Shown here piece after piece: positions 1,800 to 12,715 of a DNA stretch of 12,715 nucleotides. The notes below the pieces were generated by a model. That model did not search any database. It saw only the letters and a program-made list of their open reading frames with translations, and was not told where the DNA came from. This DNA is from a virus (lineage: Monodnaviria > Loebvirae > Hofneiviricota > Faserviricetes > Tubulavirales > Inoviridae), in the IMG/VR virus record IMGVR_UViG_2565956711_000001; one strand, given 5' to 3'. The position numbers and the translations under genes were made by a program. Position 1 is the stretch's first letter; the number at the start of each line of letters is the position of its first letter.

Positions 1800-2237
1800 T
1801 TATGACGACTTATGTAGTTCCCGAATCATATGGTTGGCCAACAGGCTTTCCACCGGTATAACCGAATTGATTTTTACCGCTTTGACAATTTCTATCAACG
1901 AAAGGGTATTTTGCGCTAATTGGTCTCGCAATTCACTTACTTCAGCCTGCAACTGCTGGTTTCTGGCCAGTAAAGCCTGACGGGTTTTGCGGTTGACGTA
2001 TTGCTGTTTTTCTTTTGGGCGTAGATTCAATGGGCCAAGTTGCTGGTCAACATAGGCAGCAATTAGGCGTTTACGCTCTAGGCTGCTCAGCGTACTTAAA
2101 CCACCGTTAACGATACCTTTTGCCTTGAGCCTAATATGCAGGGCCTTGGCGGAAATAGGGGACTTGTCAAAGCCTTCAACCAGCATCAGTTGTAATTCGT
2201 GCTCAATCAGTGTGTTCAGTTCCTTGCCGCGCATCAA
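1800..2237 (-). CDS. Small coiled-coil accessory protein, GinD-like (145 aa), fourth gene of the recombinase operon
   Basis: The track start is TTG at 2235-2237. An ATG at 2232-2234 shares one base with the ginC-like TGA stop (TGATG), and GGAG lies 8 nt upstream of it. The C-terminal half is coiled-coil-like (RKTRQALLARNQQLQAEVSELRDQLAQNTLSLIEIV). Position and size match the small fourth gene of GInt gin operons. Confidence 0.75.
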   Translation of the reverse strand: MMRGKELNTLIEHELQLMLVEGFDKSPISAKALHIRLKAKGIVNGGLSTLSSLERKRLIAAYVDQQLGPLNLRPKEKQQYVNRKTRQALLARNQQLQAEVSELRDQLAQNTLSLIEIVKAVKINSVIPVESLLANHMIRELHKSS

Positions 2238-4600
2238 TCATTCTCCTGCATCAATTGTTGGTATTCAAGTGCAAAAAGCTGGGCCAGTGTACGGACTTTG
2301 CCCTCGGTGATTACTCCACCAGACAACACACTCTCAGCAGCAACCAGTTGTTGAGTCTTGGCACGACGATGCCATTGTGCTTGTATTGCCTCGAGTTGCT
2401 GTAACCGTCGTTCGATGTCGGCCAGTCTGGTCTGGTAATCAGGCTGATGTTGAGTAAGTTGGGTCAACTTCGAATGTGCTTGCTGTAAAGCCTGTTTTTT
2501 GGCAATCAGATTTGGTAGCTCATCTATCCGGCCTGTCAGCGTGAAATGTTCACAAAAGGCAGCACTCTGGCATTTCAGTCGATAAGGACATCCCCAGAGG
2601 TTAACTTCCCGCATACAGGAGCCAAATTTCAGCGGATACAGCACGGCATGTCTTGCCACCATGTCAGAGGCTTGCTCTGGTCCTTCTGCGTCGCGGATTT
2701 CTTCAAAGGCGGCAGCAACATCTTCAAAGAGGCCGTTAGCAAATGACGCCTCGACAAACCTGGCTACATCATCCCGATCGTCAAAAGTATGCAGGTTGGC
2801 TTTGATGGTATTGTCCAAAGTCATGTGTTCCGTGACCGCCAGTTGGCCGGTCCGTTTGACGATATCCAGTGGCGTAGCAATGGAGGACGAAGAGGGCGAG
2901 ACAGTTAGTGCTGTCGAAATCGGCTGCAAGGGCACCAACGAGGCGGCTTTTCGCCGTTCTGCAAGCGCCAGATGTTGATAATGCTGATTCTGCGTGATGT
3001 CCACTCGACCCATCAACATTGCCTGTAAGTGGTCAGAGATATCCGCAATAGCAAGAAAGGTATTGATGTTGTGCCGGGGAATGTGGGTACGCATCCGCGT
3101 CGAGGTGCCATCCTCCTCCAGTAATTGATATTTGCTGAATACTGATCCATCAGGCTCAACGTTGCCTAAGAATTTATTCATAAGTGTGTTAGTGAAGGGT
3201 ATCGGTGTAGCCAGCAAAGCCAGTGTGCGCTTTAATGCCAGCGAACCCTTCTCGTGTAGAAATAGCAGATCCTCGTAGTTAACTTGGTAGCGTTTGCCAT
3301 TTTCCATCCAGGCGTGTGTACAGGGTTCGTTGGCATTCGCCAGACCAAATTCGGTCTTAATGTAATGATTGAGAGCAGTCTTGGAATAATAGATAGATTT
3401 GCTGTTTTTCGGGCCTGGTATTTCTTGAACGGGCAGCACACCTCTTTTGCTAAGGGCTTTGGATGTTTTGTCCCGTTGTCCTGCCCGGCCCCGAAAACTT
3501 GAGGTAGTTTGGGTGATGTACTTCACCACATCGTCCAGTTCGACTCGTTCACCGGGCATGTTGCTGATGGCCTGTGGCAGGTAATCAGCAAAAGATTTTG
3601 CCCGTAGATAGGTAAGATGGCTGCGTATTGGTGCGGTCAACATTTTAACGGTACTGAATATACTCTCGACCAGCGGTACTGCCAGCGGTTCTACCCAATG
3701 CGTTCGCTCCCCAGCACCTTTGACACCAACATAACGGATACCAAGAAAATAATCGGGTAATCCCTTGTCCTGAAATCGTTTGCAGATTGCCGGATCATCA
3801 ATCTGGCGTTTAAACAGGGCATCCTGTCTGAGATTAAACGCTTCAATGGAGCGAAAGCCGGTAATAACCAATAACAACAGGCAATTTAACGCGATTTTCT
3901 CAGCATCACTTTCCACCCGCTGGATTAATGCAACTATGTTCAGAAATCCGCGAATGGTAATCAACGCATCTTCACCATCGGTAGTGGTATCAGACAGCTT
4001 GGCCTGCTGTTTCAGCGCCATGGTTTCCCGGGCTTTGCGGGTCAAGTTGGTTTTGTTGGTATACTTCACATCAGAGTTGTATTGCAGTTTAACCAACGTA
4101 AATGTGAAGTGATTGACCAATTTTTGAAGGCTAACGCACCGCCCTTTATAGTTAGCTGTATTGGGGTCACTAGGAGATGAAACGCTACTGAGAAGATCCA
4201 TCGCTCGTTGAATGACAACTGTGCTCAGGTAAGATGGATGGGTCTGTCCTGTCTCATAAAGCATCGCATGGTACCATCGTTTCAGAATCATCAAAGTTGC
4301 CTTTGCCACCGCTGGCGACATACTCCTATTTCCCTGTCGGTAAACCACTACCAGCATAGCTTTCATGAACTGACTATATTCTTTGTCGATGGGCAGATGT
4401 TCTACAATACCTTTGAATCTGTTCATCTCATCAAAACGTAATGTATTTCTGCCGTTCCCTCGCAACCATCCACTTCCCTGGTTACCACTTACCCAGATAT
4501 GATCATTCCATGTTTGGGCAAAATCAGCAGACAGGTGCTGTTCGAACCATTTTTTTTGCTCTTCAATAAAAGCCTGAAAATGCTCAAAGTGATTTTTCAT
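2234..4600 (-). CDS. Large tyrosine recombinase/integrase, GinC-like (788 aa)
   Basis: ATG at 4598-4600 with AGGTGA 7 nt upstream; it overlaps the upstream gene by 17 nt. Catalytic signature: TGFRSIEAFNL (Arg-I), HIPRHNINTF (H-x-x-R-H), LMGRVDITQNQHYQHL (Tyr nucleophile). The C-terminus carries a 4-Cys cluster followed by a Q-rich coiled coil. Confidence 0.9.
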   Translation of the reverse strand: MKNHFEHFQAFIEEQKKWFEQHLSADFAQTWNDHIWVSGNQGSGWLRGNGRNTLRFDEMNRFKGIVEHLPIDKEYSQFMKAMLVVVYRQGNRSMSPAVAKATLMILKRWYHAMLYETGQTHPSYLSTVVIQRAMDLLSSVSSPSDPNTANYKGRCVSLQKLVNHFTFTLVKLQYNSDVKYTNKTNLTRKARETMALKQQAKLSDTTTDGEDALITIRGFLNIVALIQRVESDAEKIALNCLLLLVITGFRSIEAFNLRQDALFKRQIDDPAICKRFQDKGLPDYFLGIRYVGVKGAGERTHWVEPLAVPLVESIFSTVKMLTAPIRSHLTYLRAKSFADYLPQAISNMPGERVELDDVVKYITQTTSSFRGRAGQRDKTSKALSKRGVLPVQEIPGPKNSKSIYYSKTALNHYIKTEFGLANANEPCTHAWMENGKRYQVNYEDLLFLHEKGSLALKRTLALLATPIPFTNTLMNKFLGNVEPDGSVFSKYQLLEEDGTSTRMRTHIPRHNINTFLAIADISDHLQAMLMGRVDITQNQHYQHLALAERRKAASLVPLQPISTALTVSPSSSSIATPLDIVKRTGQLAVTEHMTLDNTIKANLHTFDDRDDVARFVEASFANGLFEDVAAAFEEIRDAEGPEQASDMVARHAVLYPLKFGSCMREVNLWGCPYRLKCQSAAFCEHFTLTGRIDELPNLIAKKQALQQAHSKLTQLTQHQPDYQTRLADIERRLQQLEAIQAQWHRRAKTQQLVAAESVLSGGVITEGKVRTLAQLFALEYQQLMQEND

Positions 4601-6149
4601 TGGACTTCACCTGTTCCTGATGAAAACGGCAGCGGGCGATAACAGACTCAATTTCAAACTGTGTGGTTTCATGGATTAAAATGAGCGGATTTCGGGAATT
4701 ACCTACACCGTCTGAAATAGCGATTAGTTCATCGACTTCTTTTTTGACGCATTCAAGTAGAGCCTGATGTTCACCATCCGTAAAAGGGCGATAATACAGA
4801 CAGCCGTAACAAGAACGCACTTCGCTGAAAGGGCATGTACTACTGTTCCTGGAGCAACCACCAATTTTATCATGCAACTCGTCACCAACGAGTCCCACCA
4901 CTGGATGGCCTTTCCAATGTGCTGAGTCGACCAGTTCCCCAGTGAGCATCATAGCCACCATATTTTGCCAAACGGGATTCGACCCAAGCGCTTTAGCACG
5001 GATCAAGGCCAACGCGGGAGTTGCCATAATGTAGTATTTAGCTACGGCAAGAGAGGTGTGCCCCAGTACATGTGCTATCTCTTCAGCGCTAGCACCTTGC
5101 ATCGCCAAAGAGTGCCCAACATTGTGGCGTAAATCAGTGGGTGTAATTGTGGGCAATGCAGCTTCGCCACATGCTACGGCGGCTTGATATTCAGGAGGAC
5201 AGAAATTTAGGATTGCCTGATTAATTGCCTGAGACACATAATGCGGAGCTGAAACGCTGAAATCGAATAGTTTATCTTCGGGGTTTTTCTTATATCTCAC
5301 GGTATAGTTCATAATTAACTCCCCAATTTCTGGGGGGATCGCCAGAAATAACCGCTCTGTCGTCACTCGTCTTTGTTTAGCATATGGTAAAAAAACACTG
5401 TATCGAATCAGACCAGATTCCTGATTTCGTGTATCGATACGAACATCTTTGACCGCCAGCCTAGCGAGTTGTACTGGGCGTGCACCCGTTACATAAGCCA
5501 ACCCAAGGATAGCTGCATTGCGCACTTCGCTGTGACTGAAACTTTTGCCATCGCGTAACAACGAAGCCATTTCAAACAGTCCATTGCAAATCATGTTTTT
5601 TTCAAGAGGGTCAAGAATATTATCGATTTCTTGGTAACCCCCCCAATGTTCGAGATACGGTCGAGGGACGAACTCAAGATCATCGTAATCTTCAAGATTG
5701 AAACCTGGGAATGTTTCAGCACAAAGTATTTTTAATCCGAATAACACGGAATAAAAAGTAGCATTATCAATATCCTCTTTTTCGATAAATAATCGGAGCG
5801 TACTAAGCGAAAACCCACCATGTTCTCGACAATATGAAATGATATTCCTCCAATCAAGGTGCAACGCTGGAAGTTTGGTTGGAAATCTCGTCGATGCATA
5901 TTTGAAACAGATATACTTGTTTAATTTATTTGAGATATAATCTTGATTGAAAACAAGATATCGCCGACTGCCTGAATAATCGAAAGTCCATTTATTTCCT
6001 TTGTTAACAATATATTTATCATCAAACTCCATTGCCGTTTTTAGATAAATTCGATCAGGAATATCGAGTTCAAAGATAGCCTTAGCTAAATCAGGAGGGT
6101 AAACTGAGTTCCCTTCGTCAGATTTTAATGCATTATCAAATGATGTCAT
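4584..6149 (-). CDS. Tyrosine recombinase/integrase, GinB-like (521 aa)
   Basis: ATG at 6147-6149 overlaps the upstream gene by 14 nt. Catalytic signature: TGARPVQLARL (Arg-I), DLRHNVGHSL (R-H box), LGHTSLAVAKYY (His-II and Tyr). A C-terminal 4-Cys cluster is present. Confidence 0.9.
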   Translation of the reverse strand: MTSFDNALKSDEGNSVYPPDLAKAIFELDIPDRIYLKTAMEFDDKYIVNKGNKWTFDYSGSRRYLVFNQDYISNKLNKYICFKYASTRFPTKLPALHLDWRNIISYCREHGGFSLSTLRLFIEKEDIDNATFYSVLFGLKILCAETFPGFNLEDYDDLEFVPRPYLEHWGGYQEIDNILDPLEKNMICNGLFEMASLLRDGKSFSHSEVRNAAILGLAYVTGARPVQLARLAVKDVRIDTRNQESGLIRYSVFLPYAKQRRVTTERLFLAIPPEIGELIMNYTVRYKKNPEDKLFDFSVSAPHYVSQAINQAILNFCPPEYQAAVACGEAALPTITPTDLRHNVGHSLAMQGASAEEIAHVLGHTSLAVAKYYIMATPALALIRAKALGSNPVWQNMVAMMLTGELVDSAHWKGHPVVGLVGDELHDKIGGCSRNSSTCPFSEVRSCYGCLYYRPFTDGEHQALLECVKKEVDELIAISDGVGNSRNPLILIHETTQFEIESVIARCRFHQEQVKSNEKSL

Positions 6150-7530
6150 CGTTATATCTATCCATTATAGTATCTAACGTATTATGTAGCGCTGCATTGT
6201 CTTGAATAATTCGTTGGACATTGGCAGCATTAGCCTGCTCAGACAGGAAACGTTTTGCATATAGATCAGGCATTTGACTTGTCGGACTCCATCCCCCCAT
6301 CAGTCGTAGTTCATCTTTAGCTTCTTCCATTATCCCTGAGAGGGAAGGGACTTCAGCAATAAAGTGTGTTTTATTTTGCTGGCTTTTCAAATATTTTAAA
6401 TGCCATATTTTTTGCAATGTCAAAAAGGCCCAAGTATGTCGGGTTGTATGCGGAGTCAATCGTTGCAACGAGTCAGAGTACAACGGTGATTTGTACTCTG
6501 GATATTGGTTAGTGAAGACCTGATCTATTTTCGAAAAAATAGAATGAACTGATGTGTAGGACAAAGGCTTCGCTGACTGTTGACTCGATGTAAAGATGAA
6601 ATCGTGTTTATCAGTTTTTGGTCGAAGCTTTGCTATATAAATGCTTAAAAAAATATAATCCTGCTTATCGAGCTCCAACACACGATTAGCCCATGCATTT
6701 TTGAGAGATGGCGCATTCTTTCTTGGTTCGTATGCCTCGTCGACAGTTGTCACAATCAAACTAAACTTATCACCTTTTAAATTAGGTTTAATTGAGCTGC
6801 ACTCTAACAACAATAGCTCACCTGTTCGTAAACCATAATTTAACAACAGACGAATAATCAAAAAATTGCGGAACTGAAGATGCCCGGAAGGGAAAGGATT
6901 TAGCGGGTTATGCTTTTGGGCAGAAGAGGGGGTTATTATTCCATACAGGCTGAGCACCATTGCCCCAGACAAACTCTGAAATCCTTGGCTGCTGTGACTA
7001 TGTTGCGAAAATTTGTTTGATGTAAGCGTTCGATAATTCTCCCGGCAAAGCTGTAAACGGGTGTGTAAACGCGAAGCCAAAAGTGATAATGCTTTGGGAG
7101 AGTCATCCCGGTATGCAGGTGATATGTAGGTGTTAATCAAAAAAGAAATGAAATGGATCACAGCACGAACTCTAACTGTATGAGTTAAGCTATTGGCTTT
7201 TGTGACTCTCGTTAAAGACAACACATTTGACTGGACGTTGTGGCCATTTTCTAGATACATCCAAAATGCGGGCATTTCACCGACAGCAATGTCTGGATTG
7301 TGGTCAGATGAATAGAAGCTGTAGCAAAACGAGACACCATACTTTTGCCTCCAGAATTCGTAAAAAAACTTCACAGATTGAAGTGAAGCTGACTGTGTGG
7401 ACAATGAGCGGAAAGCCAAATGGTCAATATGGTACCTAAGGGGATACAGCAACGGCAGAGAGGTTTCCAAGTCCATCAGGATCCATCGCCTTTTACGGCC
7501 TGAGATAACCAACTGCTTTAGTGAATACAC
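6136..7530 (-). CDS. Tyrosine recombinase/integrase, GinA-like (464 aa), first gene of the operon
   Basis: GTG start at 7528-7530 with GAGG 8 nt upstream; an alternative ATG lies at 7474-7476. Catalytic signature: YGLRTGELLLL (Arg-I), HTTRHTWAFL (H-x-x-R-H), GGWSPTSQMPDLYAKR (Trp in the His-II position, then Tyr). Confidence 0.9.
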   Translation of the reverse strand: MYSLKQLVISGRKRRWILMDLETSLPLLYPLRYHIDHLAFRSLSTQSASLQSVKFFYEFWRQKYGVSFCYSFYSSDHNPDIAVGEMPAFWMYLENGHNVQSNVLSLTRVTKANSLTHTVRVRAVIHFISFLINTYISPAYRDDSPKALSLLASRLHTRLQLCRENYRTLTSNKFSQHSHSSQGFQSLSGAMVLSLYGIITPSSAQKHNPLNPFPSGHLQFRNFLIIRLLLNYGLRTGELLLLECSSIKPNLKGDKFSLIVTTVDEAYEPRKNAPSLKNAWANRVLELDKQDYIFLSIYIAKLRPKTDKHDFIFTSSQQSAKPLSYTSVHSIFSKIDQVFTNQYPEYKSPLYSDSLQRLTPHTTRHTWAFLTLQKIWHLKYLKSQQNKTHFIAEVPSLSGIMEEAKDELRLMGGWSPTSQMPDLYAKRFLSEQANAANVQRIIQDNAALHNTLDTIMDRYNDDII

Positions 7531-7673
7531 AATATTTACCTCAAAATTATCATGGATATGAAGAGAATGTACTCTGTACCTAATGCAAGAAACGAGAGGG
7601 AGATCAGAAATCCTAACGTATTGATTTATCAGTTAGTGGGAGTGTCATATGAACTTATTTACCACAGTAGGTG

Positions 7674-7701
7674 ATTTAACATAATATACATTATGCGCAC
7701 C
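7674..7701 (-). other. dif: dif, the chromosome dimer resolution site for XerC/XerD
   Basis: The plus strand reads ATTTAACATAATATACATTATGCGCACC. Its reverse complement is GGTGCGCATAA-TGTATA-TTATGTTAAAT, a 28/28 match to the canonical E. coli dif. The XerD arm faces left (island side) and the XerC arm faces right (prophage side). Confidence 0.95.
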
Positions 7702-7851
7702 AGTGCGCAGATACGCCAGAAATCAGCCTGTAACCATCACCACGGCATTAAACGGTCATCGCTGTTACGTTCTTTCGTCTTCGACCGTCAGCCATCCGTA
7801 TCGCTTCTGAATACGCCGGAATGAAAAACAGGCTTTGCAGTGCCGGGAATT

Positions 7852-7871
7852 ATTATGGCTGACGCCATAAT
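7852..7871. repeat. Perfect 8-bp stem hairpin with TGAC loop
   Basis: ATTATGGC-TGAC-GCCATAAT; all 8 pairs were checked base by base. Confidence 0.8.
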
Positions 7872-7922
7872 GCTGTTTATGTCCTCGCTTCGCTGCGGGG
7901 CTTCCGGCGCTAAGCGCCTCCC

Positions 7923-7953
7923 ATGCCTGACGGCATAAAAACCGGATATGCCG
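7923..7953. repeat. Two overlapping, mutually exclusive hairpins
   Basis: ATGCC-TGAC-GGCAT (7923-7936) and CGGCATA-aaaaccgga-TATGCCG (7931-7953) share the GGCAT segment. The first is a compensated variant of the 7852-7871 hairpin, with the same TGAC loop. Confidence 0.7.
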
Positions 7954-7986
7954 CCACGTCACCGCATGATACGTCCGTCGCCACCA

Positions 7987-9249
7987 TCACCGCGCGCGCT
8001 CCTCGTGGGAACTCGGTGCGTGCGCGGCGCTGGCGCGCCTGACTTTTTTCGCCTGTAACACGACAAGAATATCCGTCTTGTTCTTCTCGTCAGATGAACT
8101 GGTGAGCCAGCCTTTTGGCAGAAAGCTGAACCCGGTATCGGCGTTTGTGACCTTCGATTCAGCCAGGCCACCCAGCAGAATAATATCCCCGTCAGCCGCT
8201 GATACCTCCGTATTCACCTCGCGCTTAATCAGCGTCGGGCTGTTATTCACGCCCGTATCCGTCTTCGCAAAGCTGGAAAGCTGCTGCTTAATCACAAGGT
8301 CAATATTGTCAGTCCGGATTTGCGGTTTCACGTCGAGGATAACGCCACTAGAGCGATATTCAATCGACTGGATCGGCCTGTTGTCGGCGTAGCTCACCTG
8401 ACCCAGCACCGGAACCTCGTTACCGACTGAAAACGTGGCAGATGCGCCATCCTTCACCCTGAGCCGCGGGGAACTGACGACATGAAAACGACTGTCCGTC
8501 CTGAAAAGCTCATACAGCGCATCAAGAGAGCCTGTATTCACCCGGATAAAGTTATCAAAACCGCCAGACGCGCCAATCTGTATATTCAGCTTGCCGGAAA
8601 GCAGCTTCGCCGCCAGTGCCAGCCCGGAACCGTTACGCTCACTGGTCTGAACCTCAAACACGTAAGCTGCGACAATCACTTCTTCAGAGGCAGTATCAAT
8701 CAGCGGTAAAAGCGTCTGCAACCGCTTAATCTCTGACTTCCGGCCATAATAAACCAGCACATCCCCGGTACGGTTCATAAAGTCCGATGCCGTACCCGCT
8801 ACGGCCGCTTCTGGCGATATCTGCCCGGACGGTAACGAGTTACGCTGACTGTTAAACTGCCCGGTAAACTGTCCGGCCAGAATGTCAGACAGATACGCCA
8901 CGGAACGGAAGCGAGGCCGATAAACAAAGGTCTCCTGCGGCGGCACATACACTTTCGGCGTGAACGGCGCCACGTAGTCAATGCCCTGTTTGTTATAAAT
9001 CGCAATGTTCATATTGCCGAGATAGCGCTTAATAAATGCCCGTTCATCGATATCCGGCGTGATACGGAACGTCACCACCTTATCGGATTTGGCAAGCTCC
9101 GGGTCAAGCATAAACGGCTTATCGAACACCTGAACGTAAATCATGTTCAGCGCCTGCGGCAGCGGAACAGCGTTGAGCTCCAGACTGACGCCCTTCGCCA
9201 TAACCAGCCCCGGAACCAGTAAAAAAAGTAAACCTGTTATCAGCTTCAT
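7987..9249 (-). CDS. Filamentous-phage pIV-like outer-membrane secretin (420 aa)
   Basis: Signal peptide MKLITGLLFLLVPGLVMA. The secretin C-domain motif GDIILLGGLAESKVTNADTGFSFLPKGW...TDILVVLQAKKV parallels f1 pIV (GQTLLLGGLTDYKNTSQDSGVPFLSKIP...LYVLVKATIV). The ATG overlaps the pI-like stop (ATGA). Confidence 0.9.
   Translation of the reverse strand: MKLITGLLFLLVPGLVMAKGVSLELNAVPLPQALNMIYVQVFDKPFMLDPELAKSDKVVTFRITPDIDERAFIKRYLGNMNIAIYNKQGIDYVAPFTPKVYVPPQETFVYRPRFRSVAYLSDILAGQFTGQFNSQRNSLPSGQISPEAAVAGTASDFMNRTGDVLVYYGRKSEIKRLQTLLPLIDTASEEVIVAAYVFEVQTSERNGSGLALAAKLLSGKLNIQIGASGGFDNFIRVNTGSLDALYELFRTDSRFHVVSSPRLRVKDGASATFSVGNEVPVLGQVSYADNRPIQSIEYRSSGVILDVKPQIRTDNIDLVIKQQLSSFAKTDTGVNNSPTLIKREVNTEVSAADGDIILLGGLAESKVTNADTGFSFLPKGWLTSSSDEKNKTDILVVLQAKKVRRASAAHAPSSHEERAR
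7990..8049 (+). terminator. GC-rich double hairpin ending in a T6 run (terminator-like on the plus strand), overlapping the last ~18 codons of the secretin gene
   Basis: CCGCGCGCGC (7990-7999) pairs with GCGTGCGCGG (8018-8027): 10 bp with one G-T. GGCGC-TGGC-GCGCC (8026-8039) follows, then TGACTTTTTT (8040-8049). The T-run follows the stems only on the plus strand, antisense to the phage genes. Confidence 0.4.
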
Positions 9250-10280
9250 CGTATCGCCCCTGAATAAACCGTCACCGTTTCGCCGTCGATTTCACCCGTC
9301 ATCATCATGCCGTCAAAGCTGAACTGCGAAGCCGGCTCTATACGCAATCTGCCTGACGTGTCTGCAACAACAACCCATGCCTGACCATCGCGTTTAAGCC
9401 GTCCGGCAAGTCGCCATTTGTCCGACACAACGGGCTTAGCTGGCGCGGCAGGTACAAAAGACGCTGAATTATTTGCGGCGGGTAAATCTTTAGTCTGCTG
9501 TTCAGGCTCTGAATTACCGTTTGACGTGAAAAACCAGAACAGATAAAAAATGGCAATTACCGCCAGAATCAGTAACCCGACAGCTTTAAACCACAACATT
9601 TTAGAACTGAAAATATTCTGACGTTTATCGGTGACAAGTTCCCTTCCCTGCCCGTTCTCATGGGATTTATATAGGGGGAATATCGCCTTGTCATATTTAT
9701 TCTGATAACTGTTCGTCAGATTCGACTTAAACAGTTTGATACCCGTAAATACGTCCACACGGTAGCGGTTATGCAGACCCAGCGCCACATGCTTACTCAT
9801 GCGATACGTTGTTTCCACCCGGTCTTTAATGAATCGCGGAAGGTTGGCAACAGACTGATTCATAACCACTAAATCACAGGTTACGCCCGTTTTTTCATCG
9901 GCAAAATGGCGATGTTCTGCAATGAAAGAGCGATGATTTGCAGGAATCCCTTTATCGTTCTCCCATATGCGCCATGCTTCATCAATACAGATTAAATCCC
10001 CCGGACGGCAGAACGTATCATCCGCAATGCCTGAATCCGTTTTGTAGGGAAAGAAATTATCGTTCTGAACGTCTTCATTCTGAACAAGTAAAATTTCACC
10101 AAGTGATTCCCTGTCTGCCTTTTTAATATCAACGCAGTAATCATAAATACTTTGCGTGGCAAGGCCGTAAATATTACTGACAATGCGACGCCCAGCGATA
10201 CAGGCGGGAATAATGACGCTTGCCACCACTTCGTAAGATTTACCGCTTCCGGGAATGCCCACATACGCAGAAATAGCCAT
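9246..10280 (-). CDS. Zot-like / pI-like phage assembly NTPase (344 aa)
   Basis: N-terminal Walker A GIPGSGKS, followed by DEAW (Walker-B-like). A single TM segment (LWFKAVGLLILAVIAIFYLFWFF) precedes a periplasmic C-terminal domain. Position between pVI-like and pIV-like genes is as in Ff and CTXphi. Confidence 0.9.
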   Translation of the reverse strand: MAISAYVGIPGSGKSYEVVASVIIPACIAGRRIVSNIYGLATQSIYDYCVDIKKADRESLGEILLVQNEDVQNDNFFPYKTDSGIADDTFCRPGDLICIDEAWRIWENDKGIPANHRSFIAEHRHFADEKTGVTCDLVVMNQSVANLPRFIKDRVETTYRMSKHVALGLHNRYRVDVFTGIKLFKSNLTNSYQNKYDKAIFPLYKSHENGQGRELVTDKRQNIFSSKMLWFKAVGLLILAVIAIFYLFWFFTSNGNSEPEQQTKDLPAANNSASFVPAAPAKPVVSDKWRLAGRLKRDGQAWVVVADTSGRLRIEPASQFSFDGMMMTGEIDGETVTVYSGAIR

Positions 10281-10283
10281 AAA

Positions 10284-10571
10284 TTAACCAATCAAAGGAA
10301 TGCGACGAATAATAAAGCGCGTTAACAATGCTGAAAACATCAGTTTAATCCCTTCCGTGACCATAAACAGATTCACGAAATACCATACGCTATCAGGTAG
10401 TGAGGAAAACAACCCGGCAATATCAACAGATTTTGGCAACAGTGACGCCAGAACCGGAACAAACGCCTGTACGACAAAGTACAGGCCAAAAAACAGAATA
10501 AATTTGACAACCACCGTTCGCAGCACAAAACCCAGCGCCACGTTAAAGGCTGAAACCAGAATACCAAACAT
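10284..10571 (-). CDS. pVI/Ace-like minor coat (virion cap) membrane protein (95 aa)
   Basis: Very hydrophobic. The C-terminus SALLTRFIIRRIPLIG resembles the CTXphi Ace tail (ALMTRFALRALNL). GGAGG lies 5 nt upstream of the ATG. The stop lies 3 nt before the pI-like ATG. Confidence 0.7.
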   Translation of the reverse strand: MFGILVSAFNVALGFVLRTVVVKFILFFGLYFVVQAFVPVLASLLPKSVDIAGLFSSLPDSVWYFVNLFMVTEGIKLMFSALLTRFIIRRIPLIG

Positions 10572-10581
10572 AACGCCTCCG

Positions 10582-12465
10582 TCACGCAGTCAGAATGATA
10601 CGCAGCGAAATAATGCCCCAGATAAGCAGGAATACCGCTTTCAGAAGTGGCCTGATTTTTTCCAGAAGCTCGCAGTGAGAATCAATGGAATATTTATTGT
10701 CCCAGAGTTCGAACGACCATACCGGACACTGAACATCCTTCGATGAAATACTCAGGTTTTTAATGTCCGGCATTAATTCTGTAATTGGCTTGAGAATTTC
10801 CTCACCTGTAGGCGGTTTTTCAAGTTCCGGCGATTTAATGCCGGGGTCTTCGCCTAAATCAACAGAAGTATCGGTATCTGTGCCTGTACCAGGGTGTACA
10901 CCTGTATCCGTTCCCGCACCGGGTCTGGCATTAACCCACGACTGAGGAACGACAACCGGACTATAAAGCAAGCCCTTATCAAGTTTTACGCCAACAGCAT
11001 TAGCCGCAGCCGTCAGTTCAGCCGCCGTAAAAGGTTTATCAAGCGGTATCCCCTGATATCCTTCCTGAACAACAGTCTGACCTGCAAGGCCATTAATAAG
11101 ATTAACCAGCGCAGCCGGGTTTAACTGTTCCTCCGGCTTGAAATCTATATTATCAATAACCTCGCCATTAATTACCTGAGGTAAATTTGATGTATCAAAT
11201 TCTGTATTAAAAAATATCTGGTCTTTAACATCCTGAACATCATTCGTCGTTTTATACACGGCCTTCTCAGGGTGGCAAATACTTTTCCACTGCGTTTTGG
11301 GATTATCAGCCGTACTGCCCGGCGCAGGTACTTTCTCGCTTTTACATAAATCCCATGAGTTTTCAAGCGTAACCGTTGTTGTTCCAACAGATAAAACCAC
11401 AGTTACAATCGATGAATATCCACCAAAATAAGGATTCGGCTTTTCATACTGAAAGTCTTTAACGGAAACCGAATAAACCTTAAAATTTCTTGGCATCCTG
11501 ATATGTAAGTTATTGTCGTCAGACGCCTCATGATAAGTCACATTGGAATGAGAATAACCATTAATCGACTTATAAAGCGCAATCATTACCGGATTATCAC
11601 TGACAAGTACAGCATCGCCCTTTGCATCCCTGATATCAGTCGAATAAGGATATTTAGTACCCTTAACTGACACACGATATACATCATTCGGTAATGGCTG
11701 GCTTATCGGCGGTGGTGCATCAATATTGTAATAGGTTGGCGCAATCTGAACAGGTTTAACCTGATGATTATAAGGGCTTATCGAGTCCTGAATATTCTTC
11801 GCAGAAAAGCCAGTAGCATCAGAGGGCAAATAAACAGCAACAGGGCTTTTAGGTGAAGGTGCAACAGAAGAAGTAACAGTAGCGCCATTGGACAAATTAA
11901 GTAAATAAGTTCCATCATCCTGTTTTATTCCACTTGTAATATATTCAACAGCTTTTGCGCCCTGCTTTAAAGCAAGGTCAGCAACGGAAATAACACCCGC
12001 AGCCTGCCCCAGCAATCCCCATGTTGTCTGTCCGGCAGCCATCATATTACTGCCAAAACTTGAAATACCCGTGGATATCGAATCGTCAATTGTATGCTTC
12101 GCAAGGCCATAAGCAGCCGCGAAAACTGACGTTCCGGTGCAAAGCTGAGGATTACCCACTTTCTCGCCACACATGCGGATTGAATCAAAAACGTCAGGAC
12201 GTTCGCGTATAACCTCCGCAGCGACAGCGATACCCGCGCCCATACCGAGAGAACTGGCACCCGTTGCGAATACACGCCCCGCAGATTGAGAAACAACCTG
12301 AGCTTCACGGGTTTCAACCATTTGCTGAATTACACGTCCAAATCCGTCTGCTGTTACTGCATCAGCATGTACACCGGATGAAACCAGTAAAGACAATATA
12401 GTAATACCTAACTTTCCAGACCCTGAATGACCGCCCAGGCGCATAAAAGCCCCCATAAAAAACAC
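10582..12465 (-). CDS. pIII-like adsorption / minor coat protein (up to 627 aa; the true start is probably the ATG at 12442-12444)
   Basis: Signal peptide MRLGGHSGSGKLGITILSLLVSSGVHA-DA from the third in-frame start. The linker is G/T/D-rich (GAGTDTGVHPGTGTDTDTSVDLGEDPG). The C-terminal domain KYSIDSHCELLEKIRPLLKAVFLLIWGIISLRIILTA parallels M13 pIII (YEFSIDCDKINLFRGVFAFLLYVATFMYVF). Position after the major coat gene and terminator matches Ff. Confidence 0.8.
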   Translation of the reverse strand: MFFMGAFMRLGGHSGSGKLGITILSLLVSSGVHADAVTADGFGRVIQQMVETREAQVVSQSAGRVFATGASSLGMGAGIAVAAEVIRERPDVFDSIRMCGEKVGNPQLCTGTSVFAAAYGLAKHTIDDSISTGISSFGSNMMAAGQTTWGLLGQAAGVISVADLALKQGAKAVEYITSGIKQDDGTYLLNLSNGATVTSSVAPSPKSPVAVYLPSDATGFSAKNIQDSISPYNHQVKPVQIAPTYYNIDAPPPISQPLPNDVYRVSVKGTKYPYSTDIRDAKGDAVLVSDNPVMIALYKSINGYSHSNVTYHEASDDNNLHIRMPRNFKVYSVSVKDFQYEKPNPYFGGYSSIVTVVLSVGTTTVTLENSWDLCKSEKVPAPGSTADNPKTQWKSICHPEKAVYKTTNDVQDVKDQIFFNTEFDTSNLPQVINGEVIDNIDFKPEEQLNPAALVNLINGLAGQTVVQEGYQGIPLDKPFTAAELTAAANAVGVKLDKGLLYSPVVVPQSWVNARPGAGTDTGVHPGTGTDTDTSVDLGEDPGIKSPELEKPPTGEEILKPITELMPDIKNLSISSKDVQCPVWSFELWDNKYSIDSHCELLEKIRPLLKAVFLLIWGIISLRIILTA

Positions 12466-12489
12466 ATAAAATCAAAAAGATATTGAGCC

Positions 12490-12518
12490 ATAAATATAAA
12501 GGGGCTGTTACGCCCCTT
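12490..12518 (-). terminator. Rho-independent terminator after the major coat protein gene
   Basis: The minus strand reads AAGGGGC-GTAACA-GCCCCTT followed by TATATTTAT: a 7-bp stem with a T-rich tail. It lies 12 nt downstream of the coat gene stop, analogous to the strong terminator after gene VIII in Ff phages. Confidence 0.75.
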
Positions 12519-12529
12519 ACCTTTATGAA

Positions 12530-12715
12530 TTAAGCGCCACGAACCATACGCAAAATCCAGCGGACACCCGCAGAACCTGCATACAGAACAATAAGAGAAC
12601 CCGCTACCGCCATAATTCCGGTCAGAACGGAACCGAAATTAACGCTGTTAGTCAGTGGCGTAAGGTCAATACCTTTACCACCAACAACATCACCTTCAGC
12701 AGCAAATACGGCAGG
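12530..12715 (-). CDS. pVIII-like major coat protein (C-terminal 61 codons plus stop; N-terminus beyond the window)
   Basis: My own translation of the minus strand gives ...PAVFA/AEGDVVGGKGIDLTPLTNSVNFGSVLTGIMAVAGSLIVLYAGSAGVRWILRMVRGA*. It has a signal-peptidase-like AxA site, an acidic mature N-terminus (AEGD, as in M13), a hydrophobic core and a basic C-terminus. The ORF track omits it because the ORF is open at the window edge. Confidence 0.8.
   Translation of the reverse strand, partial: PAVFAAEGDVVGGKGIDLTPLTNSVNFGSVLTGIMAVAGSLIVLYAGSAGVRWILRMVRGA

Follow-up and report, generated by a model that had tools for sequence, protein, structure and literature searches.

Filamentous phages that integrate at dif, the site of chromosome dimer resolution, have been linked to host fitness and virulence, strongly in the case of CTX-phi and modestly in those of CUS-1 and Ypf-phi. 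CTX-phi carries ctxAB together with the replication gene RstA (Rep_trans); it has no secretin of its own and uses the host protein EpsD. Its attP combines a site with a central region of 12 bp (attP1) and a site with one of 5–7 bp (attP2), neither of which is usable as a duplex. Tandem arrays and a CTX-type attP have also been reported for Ypf-phi and CUS-1-phi, which share 99% identity over 7.1 kb, and Ypf-phi encodes its own secretin (GspD2) and a Zot protein. UP-phi, another phage that integrates in tandem at dif, has a full set of Ff core genes with about 70% amino-acid identity to those of IKe/I2-2. The locus analyzed here is a stretch of 12,715 nucleotides (the window; IMG/VR record IMGVR_UViG_2565956711_000001, Inoviridae). 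Positions 7702–12715 very probably represent the 3′ two-thirds of an Inoviridae-type prophage that encodes no recombinase and uses the host XerCD recombinases at dif, an integrative mobile element exploiting Xer (IMEX) of the CTX-phi/Ypf-phi type.

The dif junction and the morphogenesis module

The window contains a single occurrence of the Escherichia coli dif sequence, GGTGCGCATAATGTATATTATGTTAAAT, which is the published dif of E. coli K-12 and Yersinia pestis. The site lies on the minus strand, and in a control search none of 200 shuffled sequences matched, even at three or fewer mismatches. On the plus strand it resolves into the XerD arm (7674–7684), the central region TGTATA (7685–7690), and the XerC arm (7691–7701); the XerC arm therefore abuts the phage element. 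The features of the junction and of the adjoining module are:

7674..7701, minus strand: reconstituted chromosomal dif (attR-type junction), 28/28 match
7702..7986, minus strand: non-coding 3′ end of the phage genome, 285 bp, from gene IV to attP/dif
7987..9249, minus strand: gene IV, pIV-type outer-membrane secretin, 420 amino acids; Pfam Secretin PF00263, 2e-24
9246..10280, minus strand: gene I, Zot/pI-type assembly ATPase, 344 amino acids; Pfam Zot PF05707, 3e-24; phrog_197, 8e-88
10284..10571, minus strand: gene VI, minor coat protein, 95 amino acids; DUF2523 PF10734, 1.3e-12; phrog_974, 6e-28
10582..12444, minus strand: gene III-like adsorption protein, 620 amino acids; phrog_3942, 5e-194
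12499..12518, minus strand: terminator-like hairpin, 20 nt, between genes VIII and III; AAGGGGCGTAACAGCCCCTT followed by a T-rich tail
12530..12715, minus strand: gene VIII, major coat protein, 61 of 82 codons, 5′ end past the window edge

The first-pass annotation had described a morphogenesis module in Ff order that ends about 285 bp from dif, on the XerC-arm side of the site. These points are borne out: Pfam and PHROG matches together with position give the order VIII, III, VI, I, IV up to the window end, the perfectly matched dif faces the element with its XerC arm, and the gap between the end of dif at 7701 and the stop codon of gene IV, which starts at 7987, measures exactly 285 bp. All five visible genes are intact, with the 5′ end of gene VIII lying beyond the window edge. 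The insertion is precise, since an empty dif with the window's XerD-side flank exists in E. coli WP5-S17-ESBL-11, where hipA follows directly after dif.

The product of gene IV matches phrog_1012 ("protein IV of M13") over its full length (1.2e-135, residues 4–405) and the structure of f1 pIV (7OFH) at 1e-12. The gene I product contains the Walker A motif GIPGSGKS, and a single transmembrane helix is predicted for it; the exact protein is named MULTISPECIES Enterobacterales. The gene VI product is weakly Ace-like (phrog_306 "Ace-like", 6e-6). For the Zot-like and Ace-like proteins, the best reading is that of pI and pVI, assembly and coat proteins, and the labels "GspD" and "zonular occludens toxin" at this locus would denote phage assembly proteins. 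The gene III-like translation, which an alternative GTG start at 12465 would extend to 627 amino acids, shows a signal peptide, a Gly/Thr/Asp-rich linker, and a C-terminal membrane anchor. Searches of Pfam and of solved structures returned no relative of this protein, and no receptor can be proposed for that reason. The visible part of gene VIII (...PAVFA/AEGDVVGGKG...RWILRMVRGA*) is that of a typical inovirus coat protein; the full 82-amino-acid protein in locus L007, described below, matches phrog_2186 at 2e-26. In Ff phages a terminator is located after gene VIII, which matches the position of the hairpin at 12499–12518. An Rfam scan of the window returned no RNA family.

The non-coding 285 bp are 100% identical to their counterpart in the Citrobacter-type loci L006 and L007. 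When this region past gene IV was folded as single-stranded DNA (ssDNA), no significant structure was obtained (z = −0.94), and no packaging signal is claimed. An open reading frame (ORF) of 43 amino acids on the plus strand (7693–7824), which overlaps dif and for which RefSeq lists a hypothetical protein in E. coli G5, is probably not a real gene. An inverted repeat, TGCGCAC-CA-GTGCGCA (7694–7709), extends over the XerC arm and the initial phage bases; it is kept in the window type, the A37 type, and the variant on plasmid p98219, both introduced below, and is not found in CUS-1.

Complete copies, attP, and the site of exchange

The phage DNA of the window (7702–12715; 5,014 bp) has a counterpart with 100% identity, a prophage in the Citrobacter-type assembly GCA_046559515.1 (loci L006/L007). 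Two more assemblies contain this DNA at 99.9% identity, a fourth at 99.2%, and E. coli G5 and NCTC9040 at 98.7%. All of these matching prophages are head-to-tail pairs with a spacing of 7,669 bp. The repeated unit comprises ten genes, in the order two small reverse-strand ORFs, a G2P-type initiator, an ssDNA-binding protein, an 89-amino-acid ORF, the coat protein, and genes III, VI, I, and IV; no integrase or recombinase is among them. In the identical copies the replication genes are recognized by PF05155/PF05144 (G2P) and phrog_8473. Copies with 5,014 identical bp thus contain both a replication module and a second att junction, which had been anticipated to the right of the morphogenesis genes, and by extension the window's own copy may share this replication module and the tandem state.

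Exact copies of the proteins occur in Klebsiella, Citrobacter, Enterobacter, Salmonella, Serratia, and E. coli, as indicated by MULTISPECIES names, and the exact pI sequence is present in 207 blocks of the searched collection. The occurrence of identical DNA in E. coli and in a Citrobacter-type genome, together with these exact proteins, argues for very recent horizontal spread between genera. A megablast search of the element against 50,697 phage records gave no match, and relatives were found by protein-level searches only.

In the complete copies, and hence outside the window, a 95-nt attP is present at every inter-copy and distal junction. In phage orientation it reads GGTGCGCATAA / TGTGTGACTCG (11 nt) / TTATGTTGAAAA / GGCCGCTGCG / 12-nt loop / CGCAGCGGCC / TCTTTAGCATAA / CGTCA (5 nt) / TTATGCGCATT, an arrangement of two inverted dif-like sites, with central regions of 11 nt and 5 nt, that flank a GC stem. 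As ssDNA, attP folds into a forked hairpin of −31 kcal/mol, compared to a mean of −12 for shuffled sequences (z = −8.65), and none of 200 shuffles was as stable. The central regions of the phage and of dif have TGT on the XerC side in common, and the remainder is unrelated. In the circular genome, the XerC arm of the attP site beside gene IV is perfect, and the XerD-like arm of this site, TTATGTTGAAA, is good. The hallmarks of an IMEX are distributed over two sources: the exact insertion at dif and the functional dif restored on one side are seen in the window, and the identical copies contribute the ten-gene unit free of a recombinase and the inverted dif-like sites with their hairpin.

A variant of the phage provides a second context for the junctions. 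The 272-kb E. coli plasmid p98219 (NZ_CP173491.1; locus L061, 1100–18200) carries a tandem pair of this variant, each about 8.5 kb long, in a plasmid-borne Xer site, AGTACGCATAA-TGTACG-TTATGTTAAAT. Its morphogenesis module is 97.9% identical, but its replication gene is of the Rep_trans type and its other accessory ORFs differ. The 285-bp end in the window matches the G2P type and not this variant.

Natural sequence markers delimit the position of the exchange. In the Citrobacter-type lysogens, the distal junction starts with AGTGCGCATAA, and the gene IV-side dif and the inter-copy junction start with GGTGCGCATAA. An exact-pattern search for an empty Citrobacter-type site gave none, and a degenerate pattern found it: the unoccupied dif in three Citrobacter genomes starts with A, and the flanks in C. 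meridianamericanus closely match those of the lysogens. On p98219 a two-base marker separates the distal arm, AGTACGCATAA, from the proximal site, GGTGCGCATAA-TGTACG-TTATGTTAAAT. Because of the Citrobacter A/G marker and this two-base marker, the XerC arm of the restored dif can be assigned to the phage, in support of the earlier proposal that the site joins a phage XerC arm to a chromosomal XerD arm. The markers place the exchange between position 4 of the XerC arm and position 3 of the central region, an interval that contains the XerC cleavage point. The natural A/G markers confirm, at the level of genomes, the XerC-arm swap that the CTX-phi model predicts.

Based on these data and on the CTX-phi paradigm, from which XerC catalysis, an ssDNA substrate, and irreversibility are carried over here, a simple model can be formulated. 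In the packaged (+) strand, the inverted dif-like sites would fold around a 10-bp GC stem to yield one XerC-binding and one XerD-binding duplex. XerC would then exchange one strand pair with chromosomal dif, aided by the common TGT on the XerC side, and the resulting junction would be resolved by replication. The expected outcome is a functional dif beside gene IV, in which the phage XerC arm is joined to the central region and XerD arm of the chromosome, together with a hybrid site at the distal end that is dead. This distal end should consist of the host XerC arm-TGTGTGACTCG-TTATGTTGAAAA hybrid site, the hairpin, and then the hipA-side flank ...GGATTCTTCCTTGGTTTATACT. Duplex DNA does not preserve the hairpin, and for that reason the prophage would not be expected to excise; instead, progeny ssDNA would arise via rolling-circle replication across the tandem copies. 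Virions with a coat of pVIII, pIII, and pVI would be assembled by the Zot-like ATPase pI and would leave the cell through the pIV secretin that the phage itself encodes. The production of such particles by the window phage is predicted on indirect grounds, namely the identical DNA in different genera and a circular record of 7.4 kb for a related phage.

Competing explanations and the surroundings of dif

The model outlined above has to be weighed against other routes to the same arrangement. A double-stranded replicative form could integrate through a single attP, as in VGJ-phi, in which case two usable Xer sites would flank the prophage and it could excise. Junction products of that route would look as observed, and the arms of the gene IV-side site (TTATGTTGAAA among them) would be suitable for it. 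Nevertheless, such integration appears unlikely, given a central region of 11 nt (10 nt in the p98219 variant) compared to 6 in dif and 7 in attP-VGJ, and given the conservation, across four phage lineages, of both the second inverted dif-like site and the strong hairpin. The literature classes CUS-1 and Ypf-phi, whose cassette is the same, as CTX type, and all resolved copies are tandem. A slightly smaller chance still is given to the element being a decayed remnant, either a morphogenesis module alone or an inactive copy that yields no virions. Nothing is visible to the right of gene VIII, where the window stops, and related dif prophages can be damaged, as illustrated by gene II of the prophage in E. 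coli MB51, which is interrupted by IS1. Against decay stand the integrity of all five visible genes, the 207 blocks with the exact pI sequence, and the existence, in another genus, of complete tandem prophages that are 100% identical across the 5,014 bp, which points to very recent transfer of a functional phage.

By far the least probable explanation is that the genes are a chromosomal fragment of a type II secretion system (T2SS) or a type IV pilus (T4P) and that no phage is involved, a possibility that is effectively refuted. RefSeq calls the homologue "type II secretion system protein GspD", and solved structures of GspD are among the matches of the secretin domain (about 1e-15). However, only this C-terminal domain matches GspD: the score against the TIGR02517 GspD equivalog is 116.9 bits, far under the cut-off of 351.35, and the alignment covers profile positions 408–592 only. 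The match to the M13 pIV family, in contrast, is full length, and the secretin gene is flanked by the Zot/pI, pVI, pIII, and pVIII genes in Ff order, with no gsp neighbors and no other T2SS or T4P genes among those of the window. A closest relationship to non-phage T2SS/T4P components, which the first-pass annotation had named as the finding that would overturn a phage origin, is not what was obtained; the secretin and the Zot-like protein both match phage families over their full length.

Several observations nevertheless weigh against integration of the CTX-phi/Ypf-phi type as the account of this particular element. The replication module and second junction of this copy would lie beyond the window, which ends inside gene VIII, and its copy number is not visible there either. 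The identity of the right half is not certain, because a 97.9%-identical module on p98219 carries Rep_trans. The XerC cleavage site falls within the interval that the markers define, yet that interval by itself fits other routes as well. Finally, the related phage of E. coli A37, a tandem prophage at dif in that chromosome, has also been deposited as a complete circular genome of 7,439 bp in which attP is intact (NZ_CP195780.1, "plasmid unnamed4"; locus L002). This record speaks for an active phage if, as is probable, it is a replicative form deposited as a plasmid, but it could have arisen from a tandem repeat through an error of assembly.

The opposite side of dif is occupied by an island. 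Four overlapping minus-strand genes at its dif-proximal end (6136–7530, 4584–6149, 2234–4600, and 1800–2237, within window positions 1800–7560) encode two tyrosine recombinases, a weakly integrase-like protein of 788 amino acids, and a protein of 145 amino acids, in an order that resembles ginA-D of GInt elements. The exact sequence of the 464-amino-acid recombinase occurs in 5,941 blocks, and none of the ten places listed carries this phage. In 75 of 5,426 E. coli genomes this island lies next to dif, on the XerD side, and its cargo is variable and defence-like (nucleotidyltransferase/ThiF/JAB in G5; Abi, SIR2, or restriction genes elsewhere). Its end also occurs next to a dif-like site of a plasmid, as well as at a locus away from the terminus, where the homology ends inside the XerD arm, at ATTTAAC. 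Transposase units of the ISKpn21 family (ISNCY) lie directly against the XerC arm in locus L001 (27370–29042) and also in L047, L054, L058, and L061. These units abut dif or plasmid dif-like sites and carry one cargo gene each (DUF6904, AbiJ-like, or SIR2-like); two tandem copies are present in one case, and similar terminal sequences flank dif in several other genera. This distribution suggests that insertion of ISKpn21-family elements is targeted to dif.

Comparison with described filamentous phages

The window type resembles CTX-phi in that it has no integrase, possesses two inverted dif-like sites of which one has an over-long central region, has homology on the XerC side only, restores a functional dif on one side, and forms tandem prophages. 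The two attP sites are 90 bp apart in CTX-phi and about 32 nt apart in the window type. The first-pass annotation had contrasted the pIV-type secretin of the element with the borrowed secretin of CTX-phi. Although that contrast is valid, it does not distinguish the element from CUS-1, Ypf-phi, or UP-phi; since these phages encode their own secretin, the combination of dif integration and an own secretin is already known.

With UP-phi and IKe/I2-2, the window type shares its status as an enterobacterial inovirus, the Ff gene order, and a gene IV of its own. Its pIV is only 28–31% identical to those of Ff, IKe, and I2-2, in the last two over 57% of the length (the C-terminal half), and its pI, pVI, and pIII have no detectable match in UP-phi/IKe/I2-2 (Lineavirus). 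Membership in this group is ruled out by the pIV identity of 28–31%, where about 70% amino-acid identity would be expected. The UP-phi-like prophage in E. coli MB51 (locus L049, 27700–36440) occupies the same dif beside the same island, with an attP that matches at 85 of 95 positions; its pIV is 73% identical to that of I2-2 and 28% to that of the window type. The distal XerC arm of this prophage starts with A, unlike the usual E. coli dif. The "Zot prophage" of Salmonella Hadar is an IKe-like phage according to its published description, and not a member of the window lineage.

The A37 phage is related in pIV (91%), pII (89%), pV (80%), and pI (68%), has the same attP type, and is integrated in tandem at dif. 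Its pIII is shorter (428 amino acids) and related only at the C-terminus (44%), and nucleotide identity is limited to gene IV (85%). The closest deposited genomes are the metagenomic Dulem virus 52/53 and Inovirus D_HF, with a pIV that is about 52% identical.

CUS-1, a phage of E. coli O18:K1:H7 whose sequence was read directly from the chromosome of E. coli UTI89, presents from dif onward a secretin, Zot, a DUF2523 protein, a PuvA-like pIII, the coat protein, a DNA-binding protein, G2P, and a helix-turn-helix (HTH) repressor, followed by hipA. The window phage has the same orientation at dif, with gene IV beside the reconstituted site, and the same gene order; it also shares an own secretin and a Zot-like pI with both CUS-1 and Ypf-phi. 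Protein identities to the CUS-1 homologues are 56% for pIV, 48% for pI, 57% for pVI, and 62% for pVIII. For pIII, 33% identity to PuvA is confined to the C-terminal ~250 amino acids, and the unrelated N-terminal two-thirds imply a different receptor. The pII proteins gave no tblastn match and 27% identity over 149 amino acids by blastp; for pV there was no match to CUS-1. Outside attP, neither megablast nor blastn detected similarity between the two. CUS-1 further has two ORFs between gene IV and dif, the HTH repressor, and orf1/orf1a, which are missing from the window type; the latter has instead two other small reverse-strand ORFs and a unit length of 7.7 kb. With morphogenesis proteins 33–62% identical and replication proteins marginally related, placement in the same species as CUS-1/Ypf-phi is ruled out.

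Against this divergence, the attP cassette of about 95 nt is 85–92/95 identical among four inovirus lineages whose proteins are 30–60% identical or unrelated. The window-type attP matches CUS-1 (UTI89) at 88 of 95 positions and the A37 phage and MB51 prophage at 85–87 of 95–96. Its positions are:

Locus L007, 12579..12673: attP cassette of the window type
Locus L012, ~22507..22601: attP cassette
Locus L049, ~36342..36436: attP cassette of the MB51 prophage
Locus L002, ~4579..4674: attP cassette of the A37 phage

The sequence comparisons would be explained either by a very strong constraint imposed by XerCD or by exchange of the cassette. It is proposed tentatively, as an idea somewhat short of an even chance, that the ~95-nt hairpin attP may serve as a portable lysogeny cassette that passes between enterobacterial inoviruses with no other relationship (the window, A37, CUS-1/Ypf-phi, and IKe-like UP-phi types), and that the window phage may represent an undescribed broad-host-range species with a novel receptor-binding domain that swaps G2P and Rep_trans modules and can lysogenize plasmid-borne Xer sites. 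The cassette common to unrelated lineages and the swapping of replication modules are the most interesting aspects that remain. The mechanism, the own secretin, and the integration site have already been described for close analogues, so that the present finding mainly refines annotation.

The interpretation of the locus as a filamentous prophage at dif in IMEX orientation is thus upheld, with the specification that the lineage is not that of CUS-1. No publication naming it was found in the literature searched. The phage belongs to the CTX-type enterobacterial inoviruses that resemble CUS-1/Ypf-phi, among which it forms a distinct, unnamed lineage, and its presence with identical sequence in several clinically important Enterobacterales adds one more player at the crowded dif hotspot.

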